Below are positions 2,660-36,581 of a stretch of DNA of 36,581 nt, in pieces. A program made the translations under genes and the position numbers. The stretch comes from a virus. The DNA lies in the IMG/VR virus record IMGVR_UViG_3300045988_108325, positions 1-36,581 of that record; one strand, given 5' to 3'. Under the pieces are notes generated by a model, which searched no databases, was not told the origin of the DNA, and worked only from the letters and a program-made list of their open reading frames with translations. Positions within the stretch are counted from its first letter, which is position 1, and each line of letters begins with the position of its first letter.

Positions 2660-2672
2660 ACGCATCATCATA

Positions 2673-2710
2673 GAGAGTTTGACTATTTAGTCAGACTCTT
2701 TTTTATTTTT
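2673..2710 (+). terminator. rho-independent terminator after the endolysin, which ends the late operon
   Basis: 11-bp stem AGAGTTTGACT / AGTCAGACTCT with one G-U pair, loop ATTT, then TTTTTATTTTTT. Confidence 0.8.
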
Positions 2711-2733
2711 TAAAAATTTTTTCAACAAAACTA

Positions 2734-2762
2734 TTGACAATGTATAACATACATGATATACT
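2734..2762 (+). promoter_or_regulatory. early promoter P1: TTGACA, 17 bp, TGaTATACT (extended -10)
   Basis: Consensus -35 TTGACA at 2734-2739, 17-nt spacer, TG-extended -10 at 2757-2762. It is one of five near-identical copies. Confidence 0.8.
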
Positions 2763-2802
2763 GTATTTGTAAGTAAGAGATAACACAAAGGAGAGAATGA
2801 AA

Positions 2803-3042
2803 ATGACAACAACAGAAAGACTAACACTAAACCAAAAAACAATAGAGTTATTACAAACGAAAGGAAACGATAAGTCAAAAAGAATCGTAAAAGACCATAA
2901 ATTGGTTATTGAGTACTATCAAATGGAGCGTGAGAGATATATTAGAGAAAATAAAGAGATTTGCATTGAGGGGTTAAATAAATTCGCAATCAATACAAGT
3001 GATGAAATGTTATTATTAATGCAACAAGCGGTTTTTAATTAA
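2803..3042 (+). CDS. hypothetical early protein, about 79 aa
   Basis: RBS AAAGGAGAG. The ATG at 2803 has better spacing than the ATG at 2797. It is the first gene downstream of P1. Confidence 0.55.
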   Translation: MTTTERLTLNQKTIELLQTKGNDKSKRIVKDHKLVIEYYQMERERYIRENKEICIEGLNKFAINTSDEMLLLMQQAVFN

Positions 3043-3057
3043 GGAGGAAAAAAGAAG

Positions 3058-3453
3058 ATGATTGCAACAGGTTTCAAAATTGATAGTAAAACAGCAAGAA
3101 AGGTTTTCAATGGTGAGTTTGAAAGTTTACCATTGATATTAGTCAACAGTAAATTAGCATTTATGATTAGAAAAGAAGAGTTGCAAAAAAATTACAGCAG
3201 GTCGGAACACATCAAAAGAGGCGATTTTAACAGATTGCGAAAAATGGAAATCATCGTCAAAAAGATAGATAATTTTGAAAGAGGCGAACACATTTTTAGT
3301 GCATTCATCATGGCAAAAAGTTCGCACAATAATAAATGGTATATTAACGGCAAACAATACTGCAACAGCTACATGGGAGTAGGAACACGTTTCACATTTA
3401 CCGATGAAACAGTGGACGAAATTAATTATATTTATAACCGTGAGGAGGAGTAA
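3058..3453 (+). CDS. hypothetical early protein, 131 aa, paralog of 3674..4090
   Basis: RBS AGGAGG 9 nt upstream. Shares K-A-K-x-F-x-G-F-x2-LPL and GxGTxFTFTxExxDxI motifs with the 3674 product. Confidence 0.6.
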   Translation: MIATGFKIDSKTARKVFNGEFESLPLILVNSKLAFMIRKEELQKNYSRSEHIKRGDFNRLRKMEIIVKKIDNFERGEHIFSAFIMAKSSHNNKWYINGKQYCNSYMGVGTRFTFTDETVDEINYIYNREEE

Positions 3454-3455
3454 CA

Positions 3456-3671
3456 ATGAAAGAGGCAGAAATTTATTCAGAAAAAGCGAACAAATTATTT
3501 TGGTATTACAAACGAAATTACGGGATTTTCATTTTAAGTACATTAGTAAGATACAGAGATACACTATATAAATACTCTAAACTAAAATCACTAGGAAAGA
3601 TTCAAACAAAGCGATACAACGAAATGAAAAAGCATATTGACGAATTAGAAAAAGAAAGAAACGAGGGTTAA
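3456..3671 (+). CDS. hypothetical small basic protein, 71 aa
   Basis: RBS GAGGAGG upstream. The ORF is tightly packed between its neighbours. Confidence 0.5.
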   Translation: MKEAEIYSEKANKLFWYYKRNYGIFILSTLVRYRDTLYKYSKLKSLGKIQTKRYNEMKKHIDELEKERNEG

Positions 3672-3673
3672 AA

Positions 3674-4090
3674 ATGAGAGTAGAAGTCAGCAAGAAAGTG
3701 GCGAAAGAAATATTTATGGGGGATTTTAAAAATCTCCCTCTTGAATACACTAATTTAGATTCAGAAAACCCAATAAATAAAGAATTGTTAAATATAAGAC
3801 ATTCAAAACCAGATATTATAAGGGAAGAAGATTTTGACGGATTGAAATTTATGAGAGTTATTTTGAAAGAATCAGAGTATGACCATTTTTACAAACGCAA
3901 ACAATTTGAAGTGTTTGTTTTAGTCAACATCGAGGGATGTTGGTTTGTATCTTTATTTAAAGATAGTTCATCAATAGGTATCGGAACATCTTATACATTT
4001 ACAAAAGAGCAAATAGATATAATCGGCGAAAGAGTAAAAAACAACCAAACCATTATCAGCAAACAAAAAGATATAAAAATATCTGAATAA
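3674..4090 (+). CDS. hypothetical early protein, 138 aa, paralog of 3058..3453
   Basis: RBS ACGAGGG. Motifs shared with the 3058 product are described under that feature. Confidence 0.6.
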   Translation: MRVEVSKKVAKEIFMGDFKNLPLEYTNLDSENPINKELLNIRHSKPDIIREEDFDGLKFMRVILKESEYDHFYKRKQFEVFVLVNIEGCWFVSLFKDSSSIGIGTSYTFTKEQIDIIGERVKNNQTIISKQKDIKISE

Positions 4091-4110
4091 TGTTTTATGA
4101 GGAATAGAAA

Positions 4111-4446
4111 ATGAAACTAGAAGAAATCAAAAACGTAATTGAATGTATAGACGAAATTGTTAAAGAAGCAAGAGGATTGACAGAAACCGCCGAAAAAACA
4201 TCAATAGACACATTAAAAAATAATTATTTAATAGGGGAGACAGTAAAAATCTATGGTCGAGTGAAAGCGAATAATGCAAAAATAAATGTATTAGAATTGC
4301 GAATTAAAAGTTCAATTCTTAATCAGAGTGATATTGCAACAACTGTTGCGGTAGAAGAAATGTATAGAGCGTTACATTTTATTAGGGTCGATGTAGATAA
4401 TTTGAAAATGTTCTACAAAGAAAGCATTAAAAACTCAAAAAAATAG
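4111..4446 (+). CDS. hypothetical protein, 111 aa
   Basis: RBS GAGGAA. It is the last gene before the strong terminator at 4453. Confidence 0.5.
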   Translation: MKLEEIKNVIECIDEIVKEARGLTETAEKTSIDTLKNNYLIGETVKIYGRVKANNAKINVLELRIKSSILNQSDIATTVAVEEMYRALHFIRVDVDNLKMFYKESIKNSKK

Positions 4447-4452
4447 TACAGT

Positions 4453-4483
4453 AATGGCAGTCAAACGACTGTCATTATTTTTT
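4453..4483 (+). terminator. rho-independent terminator
   Basis: 10-bp stem AATGGCAGTC / GACTGTCATT with one G-U pair, loop AAAC, then ATTTTTT. Confidence 0.8.
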
Positions 4484-4513
4484 AAAAAAATCGAAAAAAG
4501 TTATAAAAAAGTG

Positions 4514-4542
4514 TTGACAATATATAACGTACATGATATAAT
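4514..4542 (+). promoter_or_regulatory. early promoter P2: TTGACA, 17 bp, TGaTATAAT
   Basis: Perfect -35 and -10 with TG extension. The spacer matches the other four copies. Confidence 0.85.
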
Positions 4543-4589
4543 GTAATTGTAAGTGAGAGATAAATAAAAACACAAAAGGAGCAATTAAC

Positions 4590-4850
4590 ATGACAAACTA
4601 TGAAAAACTACAAGCAGAGGCACAAAGAACAAAAGAATTAGTAACTCAAGCGGTTATCATTATACCTGAGGACGAACTAGAGTTTAGCGATATGAGAGAC
4701 ATCAAAAAACTAGCAGAACTAGTTGATGAAAAAGTAAAAATGACTGAGGGAAGAACAGAGGATAGAAGAGAAGAATCAGCTAGAATTAACGTACAATACG
4801 TTAGACATCACAACCAACGACTACTAGAAATCATTGAATCGTATAACTAG
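4590..4850 (+). CDS. hypothetical protein, 86 aa
   Basis: RBS AAAGGAG, first gene after P2. Confidence 0.5.
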   Translation: MTNYEKLQAEAQRTKELVTQAVIIIPEDELEFSDMRDIKKLAELVDEKVKMTEGRTEDRREESARINVQYVRHHNQRLLEIIESYN

Positions 4851-4861
4851 GAGGAGAAAGA

Positions 4862-5146
4862 ATGACATACTTTGAAGAATTAGAAAAAAGCACGGCAATC
4901 ATCAAGGCGCTAGGAGGAGAAATCCTCAAATCTAGCGCCAACGATGACGAAATAATGATTACATCACAAATTGTTAAAGATACAGTTTACCGCTTTAAAA
5001 GAGCGAAAGAAACGGGTTTAAATTCAAGACAATCATATTCAAGAGACGCACTAATTTTCGCAAGAGACGACATTAGAACACTTAAAAAAATCTATTCAGA
5101 GGCGTGTTTTGAACAATTAGAAAAAAATATTGAAAAAAGCCTATAA
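4862..5146 (+). CDS. hypothetical protein, 94 aa
   Basis: RBS AGGAGGAG upstream. Confidence 0.5.
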   Translation: MTYFEELEKSTAIIKALGGEILKSSANDDEIMITSQIVKDTVYRFKRAKETGLNSRQSYSRDALIFARDDIRTLKKIYSEACFEQLEKNIEKSL

Positions 5147-5151
5147 AACTA

Positions 5152-5180
5152 TTGACAACATATAACAAGCGTGATATAAT
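5152..5180 (+). promoter_or_regulatory. early promoter P3: TTGACA, 17 bp, TGaTATAAT
   Basis: Same architecture as the other copies. The spacer is more diverged (acatataacaagcgtga). Confidence 0.8.
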
Positions 5181-5217
5181 AATAATGTAAATAAGAGATA
5201 TAAAGGAGCAAACGAAA

Positions 5218-5718
5218 ATGAAACATTCAAGATGGAGCAAAAAAGACGGAACTTTAAAATTTGGAGATTTTGACAGAGACTACACATTCAAAGGTTTCAA
5301 ACCTGAACAATTCTTAAAATGTTCAAATAAATACGTTGAGTTAACAGGTTCTCACGTATCAGAGGATGGAAACAACGTTGTAATTAAAATCGCACCTAAT
5401 CATGTAATTCCAACAAAATTTGGCTTTGCAATCATTGTAGACGCAAAAAGAGTTGTATTTATCAAACATTGGCAAGTATGGGGCACATCATTTAAAGACG
5501 ATAGCTATATCGTATCTTTCAACCGTCAATTTTATCAAATTAAAGAATGGGGCGACCATTCAGCAGAATTTGGCGAATATGAAGACATCAATGAAAGCGA
5601 CATGGGAAACTTTGACAATCTTGTAAAACTAGCTAAAAAACAAGAAGAATATTACAACGGATATGACATTGACGAGGACGGCGATAAAGTTAGACGTTCA
5701 TTTATGTGGCACTGGTAA
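5218..5718 (+). CDS. hypothetical protein, 166 aa
   Basis: RBS AAAGGAG. The C-terminus is acidic. Confidence 0.5.
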   Translation: MKHSRWSKKDGTLKFGDFDRDYTFKGFKPEQFLKCSNKYVELTGSHVSEDGNNVVIKIAPNHVIPTKFGFAIIVDAKRVVFIKHWQVWGTSFKDDSYIVSFNRQFYQIKEWGDHSAEFGEYEDINESDMGNFDNLVKLAKKQEEYYNGYDIDEDGDKVRRSFMWHW

Positions 5719-5730
5719 GAAGGGGCAACA

Positions 5731-6093
5731 ATGATTAAATATAAACATAAAATGATGTTGCTGATTAAAAACGTCAAAATCATTGCAAAAGAGAGTTCGG
5801 AAGTATACGGATATATCGGGAAGCATTCGGATGATACGCGAGAATGGGGCGAGGGGTTAAATTACATGCAAACCATTCAAGAGAGCGTTTTAAAAATTAT
5901 ACATCTCTTTGAAAGATACGAAAAAGCAAAAGAGGCTTTCGGCGATGGAGTGAATGCTCCATCGTATTTAAAGCTTATGTGGAATCAAGAGATAAATTTG
6001 TTAGAAGCGAGTGCAAACTTGACTATATTACGTGCGAGAGTGAGGGAAAGAAATGAACGAAATACTAAAGACATTGCAAACAGTCGAAAATAA
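5731..6093 (+). CDS. hypothetical protein, 120 aa
   Basis: RBS AGAAGGGG. It overlaps the next gene by 41 nt. Confidence 0.45.
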   Translation: MIKYKHKMMLLIKNVKIIAKESSEVYGYIGKHSDDTREWGEGLNYMQTIQESVLKIIHLFERYEKAKEAFGDGVNAPSYLKLMWNQEINLLEASANLTILRARVRERNERNTKDIANSRK

Positions 6094-6364
6094 CTTAAAT
6101 TATATATATGACGAGGGGAACAGTATTCTTTTAAGAATCGTTTCAGGAAAACGTGGAACAAAAACATATATGCAAGCCGTTGAAATTTTATCGAAAATCG
6201 AACAACTAAAAAACGAGGTTGAATCGACCAGAAACCTCTTTGAAAGGTCGCAAAAACAAGATACGGCTTGCAAAGGATTTTTACTTTTTTGCAACAAATA
6301 CTCAACGATGGCATTAAGTCGATTGAAAAAACTTGAAGAACTTGAGAAAGGGGGAAATGAATAA
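6053..6364 (+). CDS. hypothetical protein, 103 aa
   Basis: RBS GAGGGAAAG 4 nt before the ATG. Confidence 0.45.
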   Translation: MNEILKTLQTVENNLNYIYDEGNSILLRIVSGKRGTKTYMQAVEILSKIEQLKNEVESTRNLFERSQKQDTACKGFLLFCNKYSTMALSRLKKLEELEKGGNE

Positions 6365-6565
6365 ATGAAAGTAAATACAAAGGATATTGAATGGCTATTG
6401 AATAATGCGACTCAATATCGCATTTCAAAAGAGGCGAAAGTACATCAAAGTATTTTATCAGGACTAATCAATAATACACGAAAAATGGAAAATTTATCGG
6501 TTAAAATTGCAAGTCGTTTGACTGATTACGCAGGCGAATTAAAAAAAGAAAAAAATAAAAAATAA
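6365..6565 (+). CDS. small putative DNA-binding protein with an HTH-like segment
   Basis: The segment RISKEAKVHQSILSGLINNTRK resembles an HTH. The protein is 66 aa. RBS AGGGGGAAA. Confidence 0.4.
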   Translation: MKVNTKDIEWLLNNATQYRISKEAKVHQSILSGLINNTRKMENLSVKIASRLTDYAGELKKEKNKK

Positions 6566-6578
6566 TTTATCAAAACTA

Positions 6579-6607
6579 TTGACAACGTATAACATACGTG
6601 ATATATT
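6579..6607 (+). promoter_or_regulatory. early promoter P4: TTGACA, 17 bp, TGaTATATT
   Basis: Same architecture as the other copies, with the AAAACTAT upstream flank. Confidence 0.75.
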
Positions 6608-6633
6608 ATATGTGTAGAAAGGAGGAAACGAAA

Positions 6634-6858
6634 ATGACAAGAATTGAAATTGAACGAGAGCGCCAAAAAGAAAGAAAACGTAAAAAGAACATCATGCGAA
6701 AAGAGTTCTTGAAACAATACTTTAAATTTTTAGGTTTTGTAGCGTTTATCTTCATTACAGGCGTATTTTTTATGTGGTGCTCTTGTGGTGCTCAAGAACA
6801 ACAATTCAATGAGGTTGAAGCTTGGAAAAATAACACATACGTATATCCACAAGGTTAA
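6634..6858 (+). CDS. small membrane protein with one TM segment, about 74 aa
   Basis: The listed 6598 start lies inside the promoter -10. ATG 6634 has RBS GAAAGGAGG. The TM segment is FLGFVAFIFITGVFFMW. Confidence 0.5.
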   Translation: MTRIEIERERQKERKRKKNIMRKEFLKQYFKFLGFVAFIFITGVFFMWCSCGAQEQQFNEVEAWKNNTYVYPQG

Positions 6859-6880
6859 AAAAGAAAGGAGCAAACAAATA

Positions 6881-7069
6881 ATGGATTTTGAACAAATGCA
6901 CAATAGATATTTAGAAGAGGATGAGCCAGTGATTTTTGGTACAGATTGGAAAGGGCATGAAATTTATGAAGGCGATGAATATTTTGATATTGATGGCAAT
7001 TATGTACTTGTAGATGATGTTGAGGAGTTCGTAAGAGAAAATTACAACAAATTTACGGCAGGAGAGTAG
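6881..7069 (+). CDS. small acidic hypothetical protein, about 62 aa
   Basis: ATG 6881 with RBS AAAGGAG. The earlier in-frame stretch has no RBS. Confidence 0.45.
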   Translation: MDFEQMHNRYLEEDEPVIFGTDWKGHEIYEGDEYFDIDGNYVLVDDVEEFVRENYNKFTAGE

Positions 7070-7071
7070 AA

Positions 7072-7740
7072 ATGACTGAATTAAAATTGCATGAAAGATT
7101 ATTGAATGTCCAACATAAGTTGAAGGCACCAAAAGGACAATATAACAAGTTTGGAAATTTTAATTATAGAAGTGCCGAGGATATCCTAGAAGCCGTTAAA
7201 CCTTTAAATTTTGAAAATGGTTTAACGTTGACAATCAGCGATGAGGTTAAAGAGGTCGCAGGAAGAATCTATGTTGTAGCGGTTGCGACTGTAACGGATG
7301 GAACGGACAGTATAAGTGTACAAGCCCTAGCAAGAGAGCCTGAAAATCGTAAAGGGATGGACGAAAGCCAAATAACAGGGGCTACATCATCATACGCACG
7401 GAAATACGCTTTAAACGGCTTATATGCGATTGATGATAACAAAGACTCGGATAACGAGAATAATAATAAAAATGAACAAAACAAAGAGGATGACGGCTCA
7501 AAAGAACTAATTTTATTAGTTTCAAAATATCTTGAAAAATTAGAATCTATGGGCGTTGAAAGAAAAGTAGTAGTTGATTACATTTGCGAAACTTACAAAG
7601 TTAAACAGATTTTAGAAGTCGCACCAAATAAATTAATCGGCGAACTTAAAAAAATCTACTTTAAAAAGAAAAGCGATATTGAAAAACAACAACAAGAACA
7701 AACCAATACACAAACGAATGGAGTCGATGACGAATGGTAA
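7072..7740 (+). CDS. ERF-family single-strand annealing protein (recombinase)
   Basis: The segment NFNYRSAEDILEAVKP...GATSSYARKYALNGLYAIDD matches the conserved ERF core of P22 Erf. RBS GGCAGGAG. Confidence 0.85.
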   Translation: MTELKLHERLLNVQHKLKAPKGQYNKFGNFNYRSAEDILEAVKPLNFENGLTLTISDEVKEVAGRIYVVAVATVTDGTDSISVQALAREPENRKGMDESQITGATSSYARKYALNGLYAIDDNKDSDNENNNKNEQNKEDDGSKELILLVSKYLEKLESMGVERKVVVDYICETYKVKQILEVAPNKLIGELKKIYFKKKSDIEKQQQEQTNTQTNGVDDEW

Positions 7741-8636
7741 CAGATATTGCGAAAATCACTAATAATTTTGAAATTAAACAGAATTTAGCAGGGGATTTTG
7801 AAATCCCCAATCTTCAGCTTTATAAAGATACGTTTCAGGCTTATGCGGATAATATTGATGAGGTTTTAGTCGTAACGACTGACGAAAGTTCAGTAGACGG
7901 CGCAAAAGCTACCAAAAAAGAATTTAAAAATATGAAAGAGGCTATTGAGCTAAAATTTGCTGATTTTAACAAGCAAATTGAAGAGGTCCAAAATGCTCGC
8001 TTGGATTTAAAACGAATCATGACTAGAGCGGAAGAAAACATTGATAAGAAAATCAAAGAGGTTTATAAGAAATGGATTGAAGAAGCTATTGAGGAGCATG
8101 AACGTTTAGCAAGCTTTGATGTAACGTTTGATATGTTGGACGCAAAAGCATTCACTCGTAAACAAACCAAAAAATCTATTTTTGATACAGTTGAGAAAGA
8201 AATTATCAGATTAGAAGAAGAGTTCAAAAAACGTGAAGAAGAACGAGAAACCATCGAAAAATATTGTAAAAAAGCAGGTCAACCAGTAGAGCCGTATGCA
8301 GTTTTAATTGGTCAACGAGATTTGAATGATATTCTTAAATTGATTGATGAGGCTGAGGAACGAGAAGCGAAACGAGTTCAAAAAGAGGAAGAACGACGTA
8401 AAGCCCAAGAAGCCCTACAAAATCAAATGAAAGAGGCTAGAAGCGAAATTGAAAGCGAAATTGTGCCAAATCTAGCACCAACAACGAGCGCAGGGATGTG
8501 GACAGAAAACACGGCGGAACGAAAAGTATTGTGGCAAATTGAGTTGTGGTTAAGTGAGGAAGAAAAAGACGCATTAAAAGAGTACTTATCTCAAAATAAC
8601 ATTAAACTTGAAGGCGTAAGACGTTATGGAGTTTAG
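7734..8636 (+). CDS. hypothetical coiled-coil, Glu/Lys-rich protein, 300 aa, partner of the recombination module
   Basis: Start overlaps the ERF stop. The sequence shows long predicted helices. No family was recognised. Confidence 0.5.
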   Translation: MVTDIAKITNNFEIKQNLAGDFEIPNLQLYKDTFQAYADNIDEVLVVTTDESSVDGAKATKKEFKNMKEAIELKFADFNKQIEEVQNARLDLKRIMTRAEENIDKKIKEVYKKWIEEAIEEHERLASFDVTFDMLDAKAFTRKQTKKSIFDTVEKEIIRLEEEFKKREEERETIEKYCKKAGQPVEPYAVLIGQRDLNDILKLIDEAEEREAKRVQKEEERRKAQEALQNQMKEARSEIESEIVPNLAPTTSAGMWTENTAERKVLWQIELWLSEEEKDALKEYLSQNNIKLEGVRRYGV

Positions 8637-9285
8637 CGCGACCCTAAAATCAAAAAAAGGGGGCATTTTAACGTTTGACGCAGAAAGTGATATAAAACTA
8701 CCACCGTACTATAAAAACACCGTAGATGGCTTATATCGGGCAAATATAACCATACTAGACCCAAGAGGGATAACCTCAGACCAACGAGGATATATTTATG
8801 GATTGTTAAATGATATATCTGAATATACTGGCTATCCCTTAGAGATTGTCAAAGATTTCATGAAAGGCGAATTTTGCACAAACGTAATGACAGAATGGGA
8901 AACATTCAGTCTAGCGTATAATCAAATAAGCATATACGATGCAGGTCAATTCATCGAATACATCATAGAATGGTGCTTTCAACATGAAGTGCCATTTAGA
9001 CATCAGCAGTATTTCGTCGGAAGCGAACATACAAGAATGCTTTTCTTGTATCTCAAATATCGCCGTTGCTTTATTAGTGGCGATAAGGGCGATGTGGCAC
9101 ATTTTGAGCCCGTTGGAATGGGAAGAAATAGAAGAAAGATAGACCATTCAAAACATCGGTTTATGTGTTTAAGGCGTGATTATCATATAGAGCAACATAC
9201 AATCGGATTGACTGCATTTTGCGAGAAATATAAGATAATTCCAATCAAATTAACGCCTGAACAGGTCAAAGAATTTGGGATATAA
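8626..9285 (+). CDS. hypothetical protein with a Cys/His-rich C-terminal half, possibly an HNH-like or zinc-binding nuclease
   Basis: Pattern C-F-I-S-G...AHFEP...DHSKH...C...H-x3-H. The assignment is tentative. Confidence 0.4.
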   Translation: MEFSATLKSKKGGILTFDAESDIKLPPYYKNTVDGLYRANITILDPRGITSDQRGYIYGLLNDISEYTGYPLEIVKDFMKGEFCTNVMTEWETFSLAYNQISIYDAGQFIEYIIEWCFQHEVPFRHQQYFVGSEHTRMLFLYLKYRRCFISGDKGDVAHFEPVGMGRNRRKIDHSKHRFMCLRRDYHIEQHTIGLTAFCEKYKIIPIKLTPEQVKEFGI

Positions 9286-9315
9286 AAATATTTTAAAAAA
9301 AGTTCCATAAAAGTG

Positions 9316-9344
9316 TTGACAACATATAACGTACATGATATACT
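9316..9344 (+). promoter_or_regulatory. early/middle promoter P5: TTGACA, 17 bp, TGaTATACT
   Basis: Its spacer is identical to P2 apart from one base. It drives the replication/accessory operon. Confidence 0.8.
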
Positions 9345-9401
9345 ATGTGTGTAATCAAGAAAGGTTACAAAAAATAAAACAAACCAAAGGAGGAACAACG
9401 T

Positions 9402-11683: not shown

Positions 11684-12143
11684 CACTCAACTAATAGGAC
11701 GTCTAACACGACCAGTAGATTTAAGATATACGCAATCAGGAGTTGCGTACGGCTCATTCACGCTAGCGGTTACGCGCCGGTTTAAAAACCAAAATGGCGA
11801 ACGTGAGACGGACTTCATCAATTGCGTAATTTGGAAAAAAGGCGCGGAAAATCTAGCAAACTACACACAAAAAGGTTCACAAATTGGCGTGAGTGGTTCA
11901 ATCCAAACACGAAACTATGAAAACGGACAAGGTCAACGTGTATACGTGACTGAGGTACTCGTTGAAAACTTTGATTTACTAGAAAGCCGAAAAACTGACT
12001 CTGACGGCGTTTTAAGAAACGGTAATATAAATACTCAAAACTTTAATAAAAATCAAAATTTGACGGGAAATTTCGCAAAAAACGACCCTTTTACGTCTGA
12101 TGGCGATGTGTTCAAGGTGGAAGACGATGACTTACCATTCTAA
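11676..12143 (+). CDS. ssb: single-stranded DNA-binding protein
   Basis: OB-fold consensus NSTQLIGRLTRPVDLRYTQSGVAYGSFTLAV...CVIWKK and the C-terminal acidic tail DDDLPF. Confidence 0.95.
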   Translation: MNSTQLIGRLTRPVDLRYTQSGVAYGSFTLAVTRRFKNQNGERETDFINCVIWKKGAENLANYTQKGSQIGVSGSIQTRNYENGQGQRVYVTEVLVENFDLLESRKTDSDGVLRNGNINTQNFNKNQNLTGNFAKNDPFTSDGDVFKVEDDDLPF

Positions 12144-13335
12144 AATAGACAAAAAGAAATTTGACAAATCAATAAATATTGATATCGGGGATAAAATCCC
12201 GATTCCTGATTTTAAAAGCGGTCAAATTGAAATAAATAATGATTTTAGCGTTTTGAGCAAAAGCGTACATGACGCACTTTTTGAACAACGAGAAAACGCC
12301 TATAAGAAGCTTGCAGAAAAGTTAGGATATGCGCCTATAAACGTTGTTATAGAGAGCTATCCGCCGACTATGGAAGAACTTCCAAACGGCAATTTAATGT
12401 TTACGACGAATTTCAGATTTAAAGAAGCTGAAAAAGCAAAGGAGAAAAAAGAAATGCAAAAGAAATATAAGTTATTGAAAAACGAAACAAGAAGAAGTCC
12501 TCACGGCGACACACTTTACAGGATTGAAGCTTTAAAAGACTTTTATAACGTTAGAAAAGGCGATAAAGGAGGCTACATTCAATGGGAGTGTAATTTATCA
12601 CAAAGCGGTAATTGTTGGGTGCATGATGAGGCTTGCGTTTGGCAAGACGCAGTCGTTTCAGAAGACGCAACTATTCGTGATGAGGCTAAAATATACGGAG
12701 ACGCAATTGTTCGAGGAGATTCAGAGGTTCACAGTACAGCAAACGTGTTTGAGCACGCTATTATTGACGATGGTGCGGTTGTTGGTTACAGGGCTACTGT
12801 CAAAGGTCATGCTCACATATCAGAGCACGCTTATATTTGCGACCAATCAATCATTCGTGGTAACGCTAAAGTTTTAGGGGATTCACGTATCAGAGGTTTT
12901 TCAGAGGTATATGGCAACACTGTAATTAAGGGAGACTCGTCAATTTCAGATTCATCAATTACAGATTTCGCTATCGTCGACGGTGCGAAAGTGCTTAATA
13001 GTAAAGTATACGATGTTGCGGTTATCGCAGACGGTTCTGAGGTTGAAAATGCAAAAATCGTTGGCAACGCCATCATTAAAAGAGAACTAGACTATTTAAC
13101 CCTAAAAAACAATTGGACTAGCGGAAGAACATTCACATATACACATTCAAACAAAACATACGTTGTAGGATGTTTCAGAGGAACAGGCGAGGAACTTATC
13201 GAAAAAGCGTATAAAGATAGTGAAACATCAGGAAAATTCTATGAAAACGCTGTTAATTACGTTCAAAGTGTTTATAAATTACACGAGGAGTTAGGAAATC
13301 TTGAAGACGATAACCGTTGGTGCGTGCCTTTTTAA
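12127..13335 (+). CDS. hypothetical 402-aa protein whose C-terminal half is about 20 consecutive hexapeptide repeats, predicted left-handed beta-helix
   Basis: Strict 6-residue periodicity [IV]-x-[GDES]-x-[AS]-x from about residue 170 to 330 (IYGDAI/VRGDSE/.../IKGDSS/ISDSSI). RBS GGTGGAAG. No transferase catalytic motif was recognised. Confidence 0.6.
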   Translation: MTYHSKIDKKKFDKSINIDIGDKIPIPDFKSGQIEINNDFSVLSKSVHDALFEQRENAYKKLAEKLGYAPINVVIESYPPTMEELPNGNLMFTTNFRFKEAEKAKEKKEMQKKYKLLKNETRRSPHGDTLYRIEALKDFYNVRKGDKGGYIQWECNLSQSGNCWVHDEACVWQDAVVSEDATIRDEAKIYGDAIVRGDSEVHSTANVFEHAIIDDGAVVGYRATVKGHAHISEHAYICDQSIIRGNAKVLGDSRIRGFSEVYGNTVIKGDSSISDSSITDFAIVDGAKVLNSKVYDVAVIADGSEVENAKIVGNAIIKRELDYLTLKNNWTSGRTFTYTHSNKTYVVGCFRGTGEELIEKAYKDSETSGKFYENAVNYVQSVYKLHEELGNLEDDNRWCVPF

Positions 13336-13693
13336 AATCGTTAAAAAGCTTGAAAATACGTACATTGTCGAAAAAGATAACGAGAGATACGTTTATCACA
13401 AGAAGAAAAAATGTATAGTTATTCCAAACTATGATGTGAGGGCAAAAGTAATTCCTGCTACCGTGAAAACGATAAAAGGGCGCAAGCAAGGAGATAACTA
13501 CTCCTTGACTAGACACTTGAAATTGAGCGAGAGAGTATTAAAAGTTATGGATAAGCGTTCAGATACAAAGAGAATGGAATTTGCGGTTGAAATTGGCGTA
13601 TCCATAACGACTCTTTCAACATTTTTGAAAAATAAAAAAGTAAATGAAAGTACATTGGATGTGATTGAGGCGTGGTTAAAAAAGTATGAATGA
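13301..13693 (+). CDS. hypothetical protein with a C-terminal HTH-like segment; the start is uncertain
   Basis: The C-terminus FAVEIGVSITTLSTFLKNKKV is HTH-like. The listed start is a TTG inside the upstream gene. An alternative start is ATG 13549. Confidence 0.4.
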   Translation: MKTITVGACLFKIVKKLENTYIVEKDNERYVYHKKKKCIVIPNYDVRAKVIPATVKTIKGRKQGDNYSLTRHLKLSERVLKVMDKRSDTKRMEFAVEIGVSITTLSTFLKNKKVNESTLDVIEAWLKKYE

Positions 13694-14204
13694 ATATATT
13701 GTGAAATTTGGAAATATGTATTTTGAGGCTGAAAAAAGCTATAAAAATCAAATGGGATATTTAGACAAAAATCATCCTGAAAACACGGCAGTTTTAACAA
13801 AATTCGATTTTAAGGCTAAACCGTTTGAAACCAAAGAAGAGGCGCTTAAAATTGCTAAAAAATACAAAATGGATTTTGAAATAATTGAAATCCATAAAGA
13901 AATCCAAGTTAAGGATGTTGAATATTATCGTAGTGAGCAAGCGTTGGCAGACGCTATCAGGGAAGAAATTAAAAATTATGGATACGAGCCTTTACAAAAA
14001 ATGCTAAAAATATCAGAGTCAACATTTTACAAATTGTTAAACGGAAAAGCAGATAGTGTATACGAAAGAATTACAATTAATGTGTGCCAAGAATTAGTGA
14101 AATTAGGGCACGAGGGTTTGAGAATGTATATCACTAAAAGGCGTGAATGGATTGCGAAAAAGGTCAAAGAAAGGGCGAAAATGAATGAATTATCTAGTTG
14201 CTAG
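13686..14204 (+). CDS. hypothetical protein, 172 aa
   Basis: Open frame overlapping the neighbouring stops. No family was recognised. Confidence 0.45.
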   Translation: MNEYIVKFGNMYFEAEKSYKNQMGYLDKNHPENTAVLTKFDFKAKPFETKEEALKIAKKYKMDFEIIEIHKEIQVKDVEYYRSEQALADAIREEIKNYGYEPLQKMLKISESTFYKLLNGKADSVYERITINVCQELVKLGHEGLRMYITKRREWIAKKVKERAKMNELSSC

Positions 14205-14487
14205 GCGGATTGCTGAATTGTTGAAAATCACAATCCATGAAGCTGAAAAGCTCGTGCCTATATTACAAAACGAGATATTTTTAAATAACATGATTATTGC
14301 GAATCTTGTTATTTGGTTTGTCATATTTATTTCATCGCTATTAATTGTATTAGCAACGGATGAATATGAAAAAAGATTTAAAATAGCGGTTTGGGCGTGT
14401 AGAATATCGGCAATATTAGTAGTGCTGATTTTAGCCTCATGGCAGTTCTTAGTGCCTACACTGACATTGTTTAAAACGATAAAATAA
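14185..14487 (+). CDS. membrane protein with two TM segments, 100 aa
   Basis: Hydrophobic segments IIANLVIWFVIFISSLLIVLA and ISAILVVLILASWQFLVP. Confidence 0.5.
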   Translation: MNYLVARRIAELLKITIHEAEKLVPILQNEIFLNNMIIANLVIWFVIFISSLLIVLATDEYEKRFKIAVWACRISAILVVLILASWQFLVPTLTLFKTIK

Positions 14488-14500
14488 AGGAGTGCTGAAA

Positions 14501-14986
14501 ATGGATAAAATCGAACGTTTAGAAACGCAACTACAAGCCTTAAAAGATAGAAAAATTGTAATAGATAAAGAGATTGAAGAAGTAACCACAAATATTAAAA
14601 AACTAAAAAATGCAAGGTGGTATGTCAACACATTTGGAGAAATTGGAGAAATTCCTGAAAATTATGACTCATCAACTGTGTTAAACGACATGAATAAACA
14701 AGGGAATGTATTTACGTCGTTTAGAGATGCTGAAAAAGAAGTTAAAAAACGCATTTTGAAAAAAGAAATTGAAGAGTTCAGAAATGAATGTAATGGCGAT
14801 TGGAAACCTTCTTGGAAAATGAGCAATGAAGGCAAGTATTTCATCGGAATGAAAGATGGAGAATTACAAGCTTGTGTAAATTGGACTTTACGCAATTTTT
14901 CAGAATTTGGGATTTTTGAAAACAAATACGATTGCGACCGAGCAGTTGAGATTTTTGGCGATAGAATTTTAGAATTATACAACTAA
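14501..14986 (+). CDS. paralog family member A (about 161 aa; N-terminal coiled coil plus a conserved C-terminal domain with two invariant Cys)
   Basis: RBS AAGGAG 8 nt before ATG 14501. Shares GNVF-T-x-EEAE, FRxECxGDWxPxW and FGxFxNxxDCxxAxExFGDxI with the 16338 and 17474 products. Confidence 0.65.
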   Translation: MDKIERLETQLQALKDRKIVIDKEIEEVTTNIKKLKNARWYVNTFGEIGEIPENYDSSTVLNDMNKQGNVFTSFRDAEKEVKKRILKKEIEEFRNECNGDWKPSWKMSNEGKYFIGMKDGELQACVNWTLRNFSEFGIFENKYDCDRAVEIFGDRILELYN

Positions 14987-18240: not shown

Positions 18241-18273
18241 CCTCAGTGGTATGCTCCACCACTGAGGTTTTTT
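18241..18273 (+). terminator. rho-independent terminator
   Basis: 9-bp stem CCTCAGTGG / CCACTGAGG, 9-nt loop, then TTTTTT. Confidence 0.8.
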
Positions 18274-18363
18274 AAAAAGTAAATACATAATCCGATATGT
18301 TTCAATGCGCAGAAACAGAAAAACAAAATAAGCACTTGTTACGGTTCGAGGTGCATACATATT

Positions 18364-18392
18364 GAGGCGCAATAGCGTCTCTTTTTTATTTT
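18364..18392 (+). terminator. terminator-like hairpin 13 nt upstream of the late-operon RBS, a candidate leader terminator or attenuator
   Basis: 7-bp stem GAGGCGC / GCGTCTC with one G-U pair, loop AATA, then TTTTTTATTTT. RBS AAGGAGG follows immediately. Confidence 0.55.
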
Positions 18393-35130: not shown

Positions 35131-36581
35131 ATGCAATTTAAAAAATTCTTATATAATGGTTACGTTTCCCTTGTTCTACAAGTAGAAGAAACGAATATCG
35201 ACAAATTAAACAACAAAAGTACAATTGAGTGGATTCTATGGATTCAGAGAGAAAGCGCATATACTTACGACCTGAACAACGGAAGTAAGGCGAGCGTGCA
35301 AATTGGCGATGATGTAGTATTTAATCAATATGTATCTCATGATTTGAGAAATAAAGATAAAGAGGAACTCGGAAGAGGTACGAAAGAAATCTTACACGAC
35401 GATAACGGCGAAAAATCTATCACGGTTTGGGCTAGAATGTTAGAGGTCGCAGGTTTAGCCGATATCGATTGGTTCAGCGGAACAGTCACATTGACTAAAA
35501 TTGAAAGGGAAAGTCAAATTAAAAAAGTGATTGCTACTGAACTTGGGCAACCTGTCGAAATCCAAATAGACAGAAAAGTTCCTGATTTTCGTCATCAAGC
35601 GTGGTATCGTATCAACGGTTCAGGGTGGTTTGATTTAGGCGATAAGATAGCATACGCAAAAATGTTTGTGCCGTCCGTTGACTTAGCAACTCACATCCCC
35701 AATAGTGATACTGGTGTCATTGATGTGTGTGTAAGAACGTATCTAGGAGATAAGCAGATTGGGAATGATGTATATGTACGAGATACGAAAATTAAAGTTC
35801 CTGAAAGCGTTGTTCCAACCATCGAGAATATGACGGTAAGCGAATTTAATAATAAAGTCGCAAGATTAATGCCTCAAAACGAGTATTTAACGACTGTATC
35901 TCACATCAAAGCTGAAATCATAGGCGCAAATGCCGTTCTAGGGGCTACAATTTCGACTTTTAAAATCAGGATGGGTTCTAGTGTCGCTTATTACAAAGAG
36001 GGCTATTTTAGACCTGATAAGGCAGGAACGTTTGATATTATAGGAGAGGTCACTGATAGCCGAGGGCGTGTTGCGAGAGTAACGAAAAGTGTTAAAATTC
36101 ACGACTATAAGACGCCTAAAATCAATGTGTTTCTTCCTTTGAGGTCAGGAAATGGAACTAACAAGAATGTTAAGGCTCAAACGAGTATAACAGTTAGTGA
36201 TGTTAGGATAAATGGGCGCTCTATCAATGAATATAGAGTACAAGTCGAGTATTTAAGCAATGGTTCCCCACAATGGACTACTGCTTTAAACGAAACGTCA
36301 ACGCAACCGAATTATGTAAAAACTATTGATTTAGGAAGCATGTACGAGCTTTCGCAATCTTACGATTTCACGTTAACTGTAAACGATAAATTTGGTTATC
36401 CAGTCAGTGCGACATGGCACGTAAGACCGTCTAGAGTCTTAGCCGTATTTTCAAGAAACGGCTTCCATTTAGGGGAAATGCCCGAGGAAAACGAAAAAGA
36501 CATGTTCACATCGGCGCTACCTGCCAAATTCAAGAACACGGTAAGTTTTGATAATGATGTATTTTACAAGACCAATCGAAT
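35131..36581 (+). CDS. 5' portion of the receptor-binding / tail-fibre protein gene; no stop within the window; continues in frame into 1..644
   Basis: RBS GGGAGG 10 nt before ATG 35131. The frame is open to the window end and the frame arithmetic matches the 1..644 segment. Confidence 0.75.
   Translation, partial: MQFKKFLYNGYVSLVLQVEETNIDKLNNKSTIEWILWIQRESAYTYDLNNGSKASVQIGDDVVFNQYVSHDLRNKDKEELGRGTKEILHDDNGEKSITVWARMLEVAGLADIDWFSGTVTLTKIERESQIKKVIATELGQPVEIQIDRKVPDFRHQAWYRINGSGWFDLGDKIAYAKMFVPSVDLATHIPNSDTGVIDVCVRTYLGDKQIGNDVYVRDTKIKVPESVVPTIENMTVSEFNNKVARLMPQNEYLTTVSHIKAEIIGANAVLGATISTFKIRMGSSVAYYKEGYFRPDKAGTFDIIGEVTDSRGRVARVTKSVKIHDYKTPKINVFLPLRSGNGTNKNVKAQTSITVSDVRINGRSINEYRVQVEYLSNGSPQWTTALNETSTQPNYVKTIDLGSMYELSQSYDFTLTVNDKFGYPVSATWHVRPSRVLAVFSRNGFHLGEMPEENEKDMFTSALPAKFKNTVSFDNDVFYKTNR
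36527..36581. repeat. exact 55-bp duplicate of positions 1-55 (circular-assembly overlap)
   Basis: Base-by-base identity over 55 of 55 positions. Confidence 0.95.

Follow-up and report, generated by a model that had tools for sequence, protein, structure and literature searches.

The DNA analysed here is virus record IMGVR_UViG_3300045988_108325 of IMG/VR, a stretch of 36,581 nucleotides that is referred to below as the window. Its early region, from the lysin gene to the replication genes, carries five copies of a promoter cassette (P1 to P5). These repeats are probably copies of an Aca11-type promoter-operator module, fired together and then damped by a phage-encoded homologue of the repressor Aca11, and they also act as joints at which gene modules are exchanged. 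At the level of sequence, this reading is built on the copies themselves, the position-specific constraint within them, the homology of the phage protein to Aca11, the match to the published operator and the chimeric and permuted junctions seen among related phages, while binding and repression have been shown by others on a homologue that is ~50% identical (PMC12658196, PMC12282945). The promoter-operator module as such is known, and its multiplication to cover the whole early region, with a regulon on all the early promoters, would be the new part. An earlier note on this DNA had suggested a shared operator for a regulator or, alternatively, a mobile and duplicated promoter module. The first suggestion is supported in the form of a phage-encoded regulator, given that the spacer of the cassettes coincides with the Aca11 inverted repeat and that the phage encodes a homologue; the second is borne out by the 5-8 copies found at module boundaries in relatives, by their permuted order and by the chimeric P1. 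The two readings do not exclude each other.

The predicted Aca11-type operator of the window and its putative repressor

Two papers from 2025 have reported the binding of Aca11, in electrophoretic mobility shift assays (EMSA), and repression by it, in reporter assays, at two promoters of this kind (PMC12658196, PMC12282945). The published operator, AGTATATAACA-AA-TGTTATATACT, occupies positions -30 to -7 of a TTGACA-17-TATACT promoter (PMC12658196), the repeat beginning at the last base of the -35 and ending with the -10 box, and replacement or scrambling of half-site 1 in EMSA probes abolished Aca11 binding (PMC12658196). In the cassettes of the window, the invariant TATAAC lies at -26 to -21, the identical position to that in the published operator, and no other site in the whole window, on either strand, matches the published repeat as well as P1 to P5 do (18-19 of 24 positions). 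Half-site 1, with the published form A(G/A)TATATAACA, is matched at 9-10 of its 11 positions in P1-P5, in the same register in all copies. The similarity also extends beyond the operator, as P2 aligns without gaps to the tested acrIIA25.1-aca11 promoter of Streptococcus sp. F0441, whose sequence was taken from the oligonucleotides printed in PMC12658196, with 71 of 92 positions identical (77%), including 29 of the 34 positions upstream of the -35 and the TGTAAG start.

The predicted repressor is encoded by the open reading frame (ORF) 6365-6565, which the earlier note had named as a helix-turn-helix (HTH) candidate and which was identified by HMMER, BLASTP and structural modelling as a full-length homologue of Aca11. 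Against the Aca11 entry 9lx2 of the PDB, HMMER gives a full-length match with an E-value of 1.2e-13 for the single sequence and of 4.9e-19 for the family profile. In BLASTP against Aca11 of Streptococcus sp. F0441 (WP_009730540), the family reaches up to 51% identity, with a best E-value of 8e-20 in the relative L129. The AlphaFold model of the protein (pLDDT 93.8) superposes on 9lx2 with a TM score of 0.89-0.90 and a root mean square deviation of 0.5-0.7 Å, so that, as judged from sequence and model, 6365-6565 is Aca11-like along its full length. The family is nearly invariant (89% mean column identity), and residues V3, T5, Y18, K22, Q28, S32, R39 and L44 are the same in 14 homologues. Mutagenesis of Aca11 has shown that Y18, K22, Q28 and R39 matter for DNA binding, and V3, T5 and L44 for dimerisation (PMC12282945, PMC12658196); K38 of the KKR motif is replaced by T in 6365-6565. 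No other clear DNA-binding protein was found in the early region. It is encoded by the last gene of the operon headed by P3, which runs from the promoter (5152) through 5218-5718, 5731-6093 and 6053-6364 to 6365-6565 without an intervening terminator or promoter. P4 lies directly 3' of this gene, with its A-tracts overlapping the last codons, and heads the ERF recombinase/HNH unit. As a side observation, Aca11 is structurally related to the N-terminal HTH domain of AcrIIA15 from Staphylococcus.

The same arrangement is found in the F0441 prophage, where the Aca11 promoters head the acrIIA25.1-aca11 and acrIIA3-AP2 operons (PMC12658196, PMC12282945). Both systems share the TTGACA-17 core, the A-tracts, the TGTAAG start and the inverted repeat at -30 to -7 with its TATAAC, and in both, aca11 is the last gene of an operon, immediately behind which stands a second, duplicated promoter with an operator. 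The two repressors are ~50% identical, with the contact residues conserved, and cassette identity is up to 77% over 92 bp. There are, however, two sites in F0441 as opposed to five in the window and up to eight in its relatives, and the sites of the window also head the ERF recombination and replication operons, whereas those of F0441 head only small acr-type operons. Half-site 2 of the window contains RTGA, as part of the TG-extended -10, where F0441 has GTTA, which makes the repeat less symmetric. Finally, the F0441 locus lies in a prophage and its operons carry acr genes, while no lysogeny module was seen in the window genome and its cargo shows no resemblance to known Acr proteins.

Among the deposited phages, Aca11 homologues were found in Streptococcus phages only, mostly at prophage ends. 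One of them, the temperate Streptococcus gordonii phage PH15 (FM163528), has a post-lysin cassette that shares with those of the window the A-tracts, TTGACA, TTATATAACAAATGTTA, TATAAT and TGTAAG, with a hairpin flush with the predicted +1 and an Aca11 homologue encoded downstream. PH15 differs in having one canonical cassette in the 6.5 kb examined, next to a neighbouring cassette that has the same scaffold and a different spacer palindrome.

Several observations weigh against Aca11-type control of the five promoters. Half-site 2 is matched at 7-8 of 11 positions in P1-P5, with 6-8 of the 11 pairs self-complementary, and departs from the published form at -17/-16 and at -14, where a G in place of T makes the extended -10 box but spoils the symmetry of the repeat. 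Two unrelated sites in the window score 17/24 against the published repeat, which leaves a small Hamming margin. The repressor is only ~50% identical to the tested Aca11, and in phage Javan128 the promoter upstream of the Aca11 homologue has a different spacer palindrome; specificity can therefore drift within the family, a warning that the neighbouring cassette of PH15 repeats. The published operator neither covers nor accounts for T-1 G+1 T A and A+7 A G R R A+12, both of which are conserved. No Aca protein has been documented as controlling more than two or three promoters, or replication genes (PMC13551039). Lastly, none of the ORFs under the five promoters resembles a known Acr in comparisons with AcrIIA24-32, A4 and A5, and P4 and P5 clearly drive recombination and replication genes. 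Acr proteins are highly diverse, so that the missing similarity does not settle the identity of the cargo. The protein encoded by 6365-6565 is predicted to bind these variant, less symmetric sites.

The imperfect match could also mean that the spacer is an operator for another regulator, either a host factor or a phage protein such as that encoded by 13301-13693, the other HTH candidate of the earlier note. Promoters of Staphylococcus and Listeria phages have part of the spacer, and 13301-13693 gives a weak LacI-type HTH match. That match, though, stays under the threshold, with E 0.0046 and 17 bits where 27 are required, and the Aca11 homologue, invariant in the family and encoded at the canonical position, has no clear competitor in the early region. 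As the cassette is, moreover, homologous along its full length to a promoter proven to bind Aca11, control by another regulator is most improbable. To our knowledge, none of the cre, CodY, LexA/Cheo, Fur/PerR, WalR, CtsR, CIRCE and ComX box sites fits the spacer.

Architecture and position-specific conservation of the cassettes

The five cassettes, the coordinates of which are collected in Table 1, are all on the plus strand and have the form TTGACA-N17-TATA(C/A/T)T, with a TG at -15/-14 that gives a TG-extended -10. Their hexamers agree with the consensus at 11-12 of 12 positions in addition to the TG, they hold the five top promoter scores in 20 kb, and they are the sole sigma-A consensus promoters of the genome. 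Most of the description in the earlier note was reproduced, including the five starts with their hexamers and exact 17-nt spacing, the two upstream-flank subtypes, the similar leader of P1-P3 (tGTAAgTaAGAGATAa) and the position of P1 and P2 directly after strong terminators (2672-2701 and 4450-4479, respectively). The spacer pattern A-Y-R-TATAAC-R-TAC-R-TGA, claimed for four of the five copies, holds for P1, P2, P4 and P5, with AAGC for RTAC in P3. The proposed unit length of ~55 bp, in contrast, is replaced by profile homology over 74-93 bp that includes the A-tracts and ~16 transcribed bases, and the repeat unit spans from ~65 bp upstream of the predicted start to ~16 nt into the transcript. 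The A-tracts upstream of the -35, at -64 to -60, -55 to -50 and -42 to -39, are phased and resemble UP elements.

The bare -35/-10 pattern, with up to 2 mismatches, has 15 matches in the window against 8.9 expected, which is unremarkable in such AT-rich DNA; the cassette signal therefore comes from the spacer and the flanks. When the spacer is included, there are 5 matches in the window and 0 in 100 dinucleotide-preserving shuffles. A profile of the family cassettes gives exactly five matches in the window (E 1e-14 to 2e-19, length 74-93 bp) and detected no further cassette elsewhere on either strand.

Relatives of the window were collected through an exact-pattern scan of IMG/VR, which returned 9 contigs, and a look-up of contigs that encode the 66-amino-acid (aa) protein of 6365-6565, which added 12 more, these latter from human oral metagenomes. 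Their genes are 70-77% identical to those of the window at the DNA level, except in L129 and L130 (87-90%). Every relative has the cassette, at 5-8 copies per locus and in syntenic positions, and the conserved spacer, whose absence from the promoters of related phages would have spoken against its importance, is thus present in ~20 related phages from oral metagenomes. The P4 cassette is found in all of them, some having a TTTACA...TGTTATATAAT variant.

Among 37 distinct family cassettes, T, A, T and A at -26 to -23 are present in 31-35, and A-22 and A-13 in all 37. Positions -29 to -27 and -19 to -18 are free to vary, whereas T-26 A T A A-22 Y-21 R-20, Y-17 R-16 and A-13 are fixed or show transitions only, as do T-1 G+1 T A R+4 and A+7 A G R R A+12. 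The pattern is conserved across paralogues and across genomes with only 70-77% gene identity. As controls, 86 unrelated TG-extended consensus promoters from other bacterial loci were used, in which TATAA at -26 to -22 occurs in 2 and A at -13 in 34. The claim that conservation exceeds what the polymerase needs holds up on this comparison, since TATAA is rare in the controls and near-fixed in the family. The YRTG block, on the other hand, is a general Firmicute trait, as 61 of the control promoters have T at -17 and 70 have R at -16.

These data bear on the simplest alternative, that the cassettes are plain, maximally strong sigma-A early promoters, alike through duplication and gene conversion, with a spacer and leader that are in themselves uninformative. 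The hexamers, their spacing, the TG and the A-tracts do all belong to the standard repertoire of promoters, the YRTG at -17 to -14 is widespread in Firmicutes, and homogenisation and chimeric cassettes are evident. Conversion does not, however, account for variable positions at -29 to -27 and -19 to -18 beside a near-invariant -26 to -20, a pattern that is not tract-like and that recurs in seven paralogue groups and ~20 genomes. With TATAA at this place so rare in the controls, and with a conserved block that is an experimentally defined operator half-site in a phage that has the cognate repressor gene, this alternative is quite unlikely.

Four other explanations of the spacer were set aside. 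A second, overlapping promoter that uses TATAAC as its -10 would be without a usable -35 or a spaced TG upstream, and the hairpins of the family fit the +1 of the downstream -10. A general feature of Firmicute promoters does not agree with the 2 of 86 promoters of the scanned loci that contain TATAA. The spacer dyads of P1 (ATGTAT-AAC-ATACAT) and P4 (ACGTAT-AAC-ATACGT) are not kept in P2, P3 and P5, and their centre is unlike that of a palindrome found in the relatives L010 and L014 (described below); this register has been superseded by the published Aca11 register, centred at -18.5. Spacer flexibility through alternating purines and pyrimidines is made less likely by relatives in which the alternation is broken at -29 to -27. 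A scan of 185,579 genomes with TTGACR-N3-TATAAY-R-N2-YRTGATAYAMT returned 103 matches, mostly promoters of Clostridia and of the Candidate Phyla Radiation (CPR), which by a rough estimate is about the chance number among real consensus promoters; its only useful yield was two Gemella prophage cassettes.

In one sub-lineage of the relatives (L119-L128; e.g. L121 6779, 7867, 8796 and 12989), nearly all cassettes have a TGGACA -35 and AATGTTA-TATAAT without the TG. The canonical TGTTATATAAT half-site 2 is regained in these cassettes and the consensus promoter weakened, in a concerted, lineage-wide change.

Table 1. Features of the early region of the window and of its boundaries; operators, promoter starts and the repressor assignment are predictions.
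Feature	Position	Strand	Details
Cassette P1	2709-2782	+	-35 2734-2739; -10 2757-2762; predicted +1 2769; profile E 7.7e-16
Cassette P2	4469-4561	+	-35 4514-4519; -10 4537-4542; predicted +1 4549; profile E 1.2e-15
Cassette P3	5109-5200	+	-35 5152-5157; -10 5175-5180; predicted +1 5187; profile E 3.2e-15
Cassette P4	6548-6624	+	-35 6579-6584; -10 6602-6607; predicted +1 6614; profile E 1.6e-14
Cassette P5	9278-9364	+	-35 9316-9321; -10 9339-9344; predicted +1 9351; profile E 2.2e-19
Aca11-type operator P1 (predicted)	2739-2762	+	AATGTATAACATACATGATATACT; 19/24; half-site 1 10/11, half-site 2 8/11
Aca11-type operator P2 (predicted)	4519-4542	+	AATATATAACGTACATGATATAAT; 18/24; half-site 1 10/11; 8/11 self-complementary pairs
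Aca11-type operator P3 (predicted)	5157-5180	+	AACATATAACAAGCGTGATATAAT; 19/24; half-site 1 10/11, half-site 2 8/11
Aca11-type operator P4 (predicted)	6584-6607	+	AACGTATAACATACGTGATATATT; 18/24
Aca11-type operator P5 (predicted)	9321-9344	+	AACATATAACGTACATGATATACT; 18/24
aca11 homologue	6365-6565	+	HTH protein of 66 aa; closes the P3 operon; predicted to repress P1-P5
Three ORFans	5218-6364 (5218-5718, 5731-6093, 6053-6364)	+	between P3 and the aca11 homologue
Terminator after the lysin gene	2672-2701	+	13-bp stem; -16.1 kcal/mol, z -5.1; its run of T passes into the A/T tracts of P1
Terminator closing the P1 unit	4450-4479	+	13-bp stem; -16.2 kcal/mol, z -7.1; directly upstream of P2
Hairpin, predicted 5' end of the P5 transcript	9351-9368	+	GUAAUC-AAGAAA-GGUUAC; -5.6 kcal/mol, z -2.4
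Tandem strong intrinsic terminators	18241-18267 and 18364-18381		close the P5 unit just before the packaging/structural genes

Proposed early control and module exchange

From these elements, a mechanism can be proposed in which each cassette is one ~90-bp composite module, made of phased A/T tracts, a -35, a 17-bp spacer, a TG-extended -10, a TGTA start and a purine-rich leader, with an imperfect inverted repeat of the Aca11-bound type embedded at -30 to -7. On infection, the host RNA polymerase would fire all five promoters together, presumably early, in a burst of transcription across the ERF recombination unit, the replication unit and the ORFan modules, whose genes probably serve host takeover or anti-defence. 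The Aca11 homologue would accumulate from the P3 operon, and its dimer would come to occupy the operator of each cassette and, presumably, occlude the polymerase, so that the whole early region would be damped jointly. The terminators after the lysin gene and after 4111-4446 would insulate the first two units; no terminators were found upstream of P3, P4 and P5. As near-identical long direct repeats in a phage with ERF, RusA and SSB, the cassettes would in addition act as homologous-recombination joints at which modules may be deleted, duplicated, permuted and exchanged.

The three ORFans between P3 and the aca11 homologue (5218-6364) have no match in PHROGs, Pfam or the AcrIIA24-32/A4/A5 set, and they occupy the acr position of an acr-aca operon, which makes them candidate anti-defence genes. 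P5 heads the replication unit (DnaB_2/Lin1244_N, RusA and SSB), which extends to the terminators at 18241-18381.

A broader proposal is that the Aca11 homologue is the master switch of early genes, Cro-like in shutting every host-polymerase promoter, with the cassettes as sockets for anti-defence genes. This is proposed tentatively, at somewhat less than even chances. If it is true, the five promoters here and up to eight in relatives, including those of recombination and replication genes, are under one HTH protein, and acquired genes arrive pre-wired into a burst-then-repress circuit in what are apparently virulent phages of oral Streptococcus. A 2026 survey (Feussner et al., PMC13551039) has described Aca proteins as often predicted to co-regulate neighbouring operons, with up to three clustered motifs. 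The window resembles these cases in that one Aca motif stands upstream of its own and of neighbouring operons with unknown, possibly anti-defence genes (PMC13551039), but differs from them in that the motif is on every sigma-A consensus promoter, across a 6.6 kb early region that includes core replication functions. Control of all early promoters by the Aca11 homologue would mean that Aca proteins can also regulate the early part of a lytic programme globally, a reach that exceeds the two promoters demonstrated by experiment and the three that surveys have predicted. What had been an anonymous repeat can now be tested as a circuit in which the repressor has a name, the site is defined and the targets number five. 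The operator would also be a sharper filter for guilt by association, as at least a dozen ORFan families stand directly under Aca11-type cassettes across the family; such cassette-headed ORFans of human oral Streptococcus phages are candidate inhibitors of Cas9 or other defences.

The role of the cassettes as joints is seen when the 21 related loci are compared. From 5218 onward, gene order is fixed in all of them, while between the lysin gene and 5218, modules (gene families 5-6-7, 9-10, 39-43, 43 and 44 in the numbering used in this analysis) are permuted, duplicated, deleted or replaced, with each boundary at a cassette. The window is collinear with its closest relative, L129 (87-90% identity), up to 2762, where the P1 -10 box ends, and again from 2704, from 4451 (the start of the terminator that precedes P2) and from 5111 (the start of the P3 A-tracts). 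The upstream half of P1 (terminator, A-tracts and -35 side) is 85-100% identical to the post-lysin cassette of L005 (P0), and from the -10 box on, P1 is 100% identical to the second cassette (P1) of L008 and L012, the genes between the P0 and P1 cassettes of relatives being absent from the window. By these alignments, P1 of the window is a chimera of two ancestral cassettes. The terminator at 4450-4479 is conserved jointly with P2, with homology to relatives beginning at 4451-4452; the P2 leader is of the P1 type, unlike the leaders of P2 orthologues, and the A-tracts of P3 lie inside the 3' end of ORF 4862-5146. The paralogous cassettes of the window differ from each other at 4.0 of 29 core positions, compared with 5.9-7.0 within any relative. 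In several relatives, an extra cassette stands between the orthologues of 14185-14487 and 14501-14986, where the window has only a ribosome-binding site (14487-14501), so that cassettes themselves are gained and lost. It was also observed that ORFs 3058-3453 and 3674-4090 of the P1 unit are paralogues that belong to one BLASTP family, which in relatives is present in a single copy and in a varying order among its neighbours.

A close parallel is provided by the promoter-early stem-loops (PeSLs) of T4-type phages (PMC2839356, PMC4122927). Like the cassettes, these are ~100-bp composites of an AT-rich tract and a strong host-type early promoter, with a terminator in some copies, and recur ahead of ORFans in a region that is plastic. 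In both cases, the ends of indels and replacements between relatives fall within cassettes, and a gene flanked by two cassettes in one phage corresponds to a single chimeric cassette in another. The window differs in coming from a small siphovirus-type genome with a Gram-positive host instead of a T4-like myovirus, in having a stem-loop terminator in only 2 of 5 copies and in holding a repressor operator within the cassette, and there is no sequence homology between the two. The likeness is therefore one of functional analogy and not of membership. It would extend cassette-mediated modular shuffling from T4-like phages of Gram-negative hosts to small Gram-positive phages, with the added twist that the recombination joint itself carries regulatory wiring.

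Given this parallel (PMC2839356), the repeat might have been selected as a recombination device, with the promoter and operator similarity as a by-product of the need for long identical tracts. All boundaries of permutation, duplication and deletion at cassettes, the chimeric P1 and the lineage-wide concerted changes speak for such a device. Recombination, however, needs identity and not particular bases, and predicts neither 6-7 fixed spacer positions beside variable neighbours nor a match to the Aca11 site. As a sole account, it has little probability, and exchange at the cassettes is better seen as a second consequence of the Aca11-type promoter-operator module.

Transcript leaders, genome context and related promoters

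A hairpin at the extreme 5' end stabilises mRNA in Firmicutes, and the conserved start and leader (TGTA and AAGRRA, often with a hairpin) might act as RNA, either as a 5' stabiliser against RNase J/Y or as an Aca-bound motif. A hairpin flush with the predicted +1 is present in 25 of 48 distinct family leaders, while in shuffles the number averages 0.57 and never exceeds 4. There are at least 5 different stem sequences (e.g. L121 6779+35; L131 ~4685-4710), which differ, among other things, by replacement of A-U with G-C and by G-U pairs; PH15, too, has such a hairpin at the predicted +1 of its Aca11-type cassette. RNA motifs in the 5' untranslated regions of acr-aca operons are documented for other Aca families, where they are bound by Aca2 and Aca1 (PMC13551039); no RNA motif is reported in the literature for Aca11. 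In the window, P5 has the only leader that folds; the P1-P4 leaders are without structure (minimum free energy 0) yet retain TGTA and AAGRGA, and the hairpin cannot therefore be the reason for their conservation. The +1 positions are, besides, predictions, although the fact that the family hairpins begin exactly there would support them indirectly. A function at the RNA level is thus doubtful as the explanation of the conserved leader, and the linear leader motif may have its role in initiation or promoter escape instead.

Nucleotides 1-55 of the window recur identically as its final 55 (36527-36581), the mark of an assembly that is circular, so that the window is probably a whole phage genome, ~36,526 bp long, with all its genes on the same strand. 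Their order runs from the end of the tail genes through holin, lysin (Amidase_2 and choline-binding repeats), terminator, P1 and small ORFans to the P4 unit with ERF and HNH (Pfam ERF and HNHc_6), the P5 replication unit, two strong terminators and the packaging and structural genes. The small ORFans downstream of P1 have no Pfam or PHROG match. The 36.5 kb genome has siphovirus-type tail genes and a TerL that is ~64% identical to those of Streptococcus siphophages. With megablast, no close relatives were found among deposited phages, and distant blastn returned only ~100-bp promoter matches, in Listeria, Staphylococcus and Streptococcus phages. No sigma-A consensus promoter stands ahead of the late genes, so that late transcription presumably needs a phage factor.

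Several promoters outside this group of phages have a comparable architecture. Those of Listeria Pecentumvirus (L001 3001-3115) and Staphylococcus Sextaecvirus (L002 3001-3091) share the spacer ATATAA..ACATGATAT with the cassettes of the window. Post-lysin cassettes with the same scaffold and a perfect 14-bp palindrome in the spacer, CACGTTATAACGTG, are found at L010 966, L014 791, L060 5448 and L097 7151, that is, in two other viral contigs and at two loci of Gemella sp. 27098_8_92. A different repressor probably uses this palindrome as its variant of the operator, and the Gemella loci hint that related phages infect Gemella. The scaffold of A-tracts, -35, -10 and TGTAAG also recurs, with differing spacer palindromes, in the deposited Streptococcus phages PH15, Javan288 and Javan128 (L131 3493-3556; L003 2392-2460 and 3002-3073; L132 3845-3917), and the spacer appears to be an exchangeable operator slot. 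Finally, within the replication module of the window, 12100-13335 encodes a 411-aa protein with sub-threshold matches to bacterial-transferase hexapeptide repeats, a function that is unusual at such a position.

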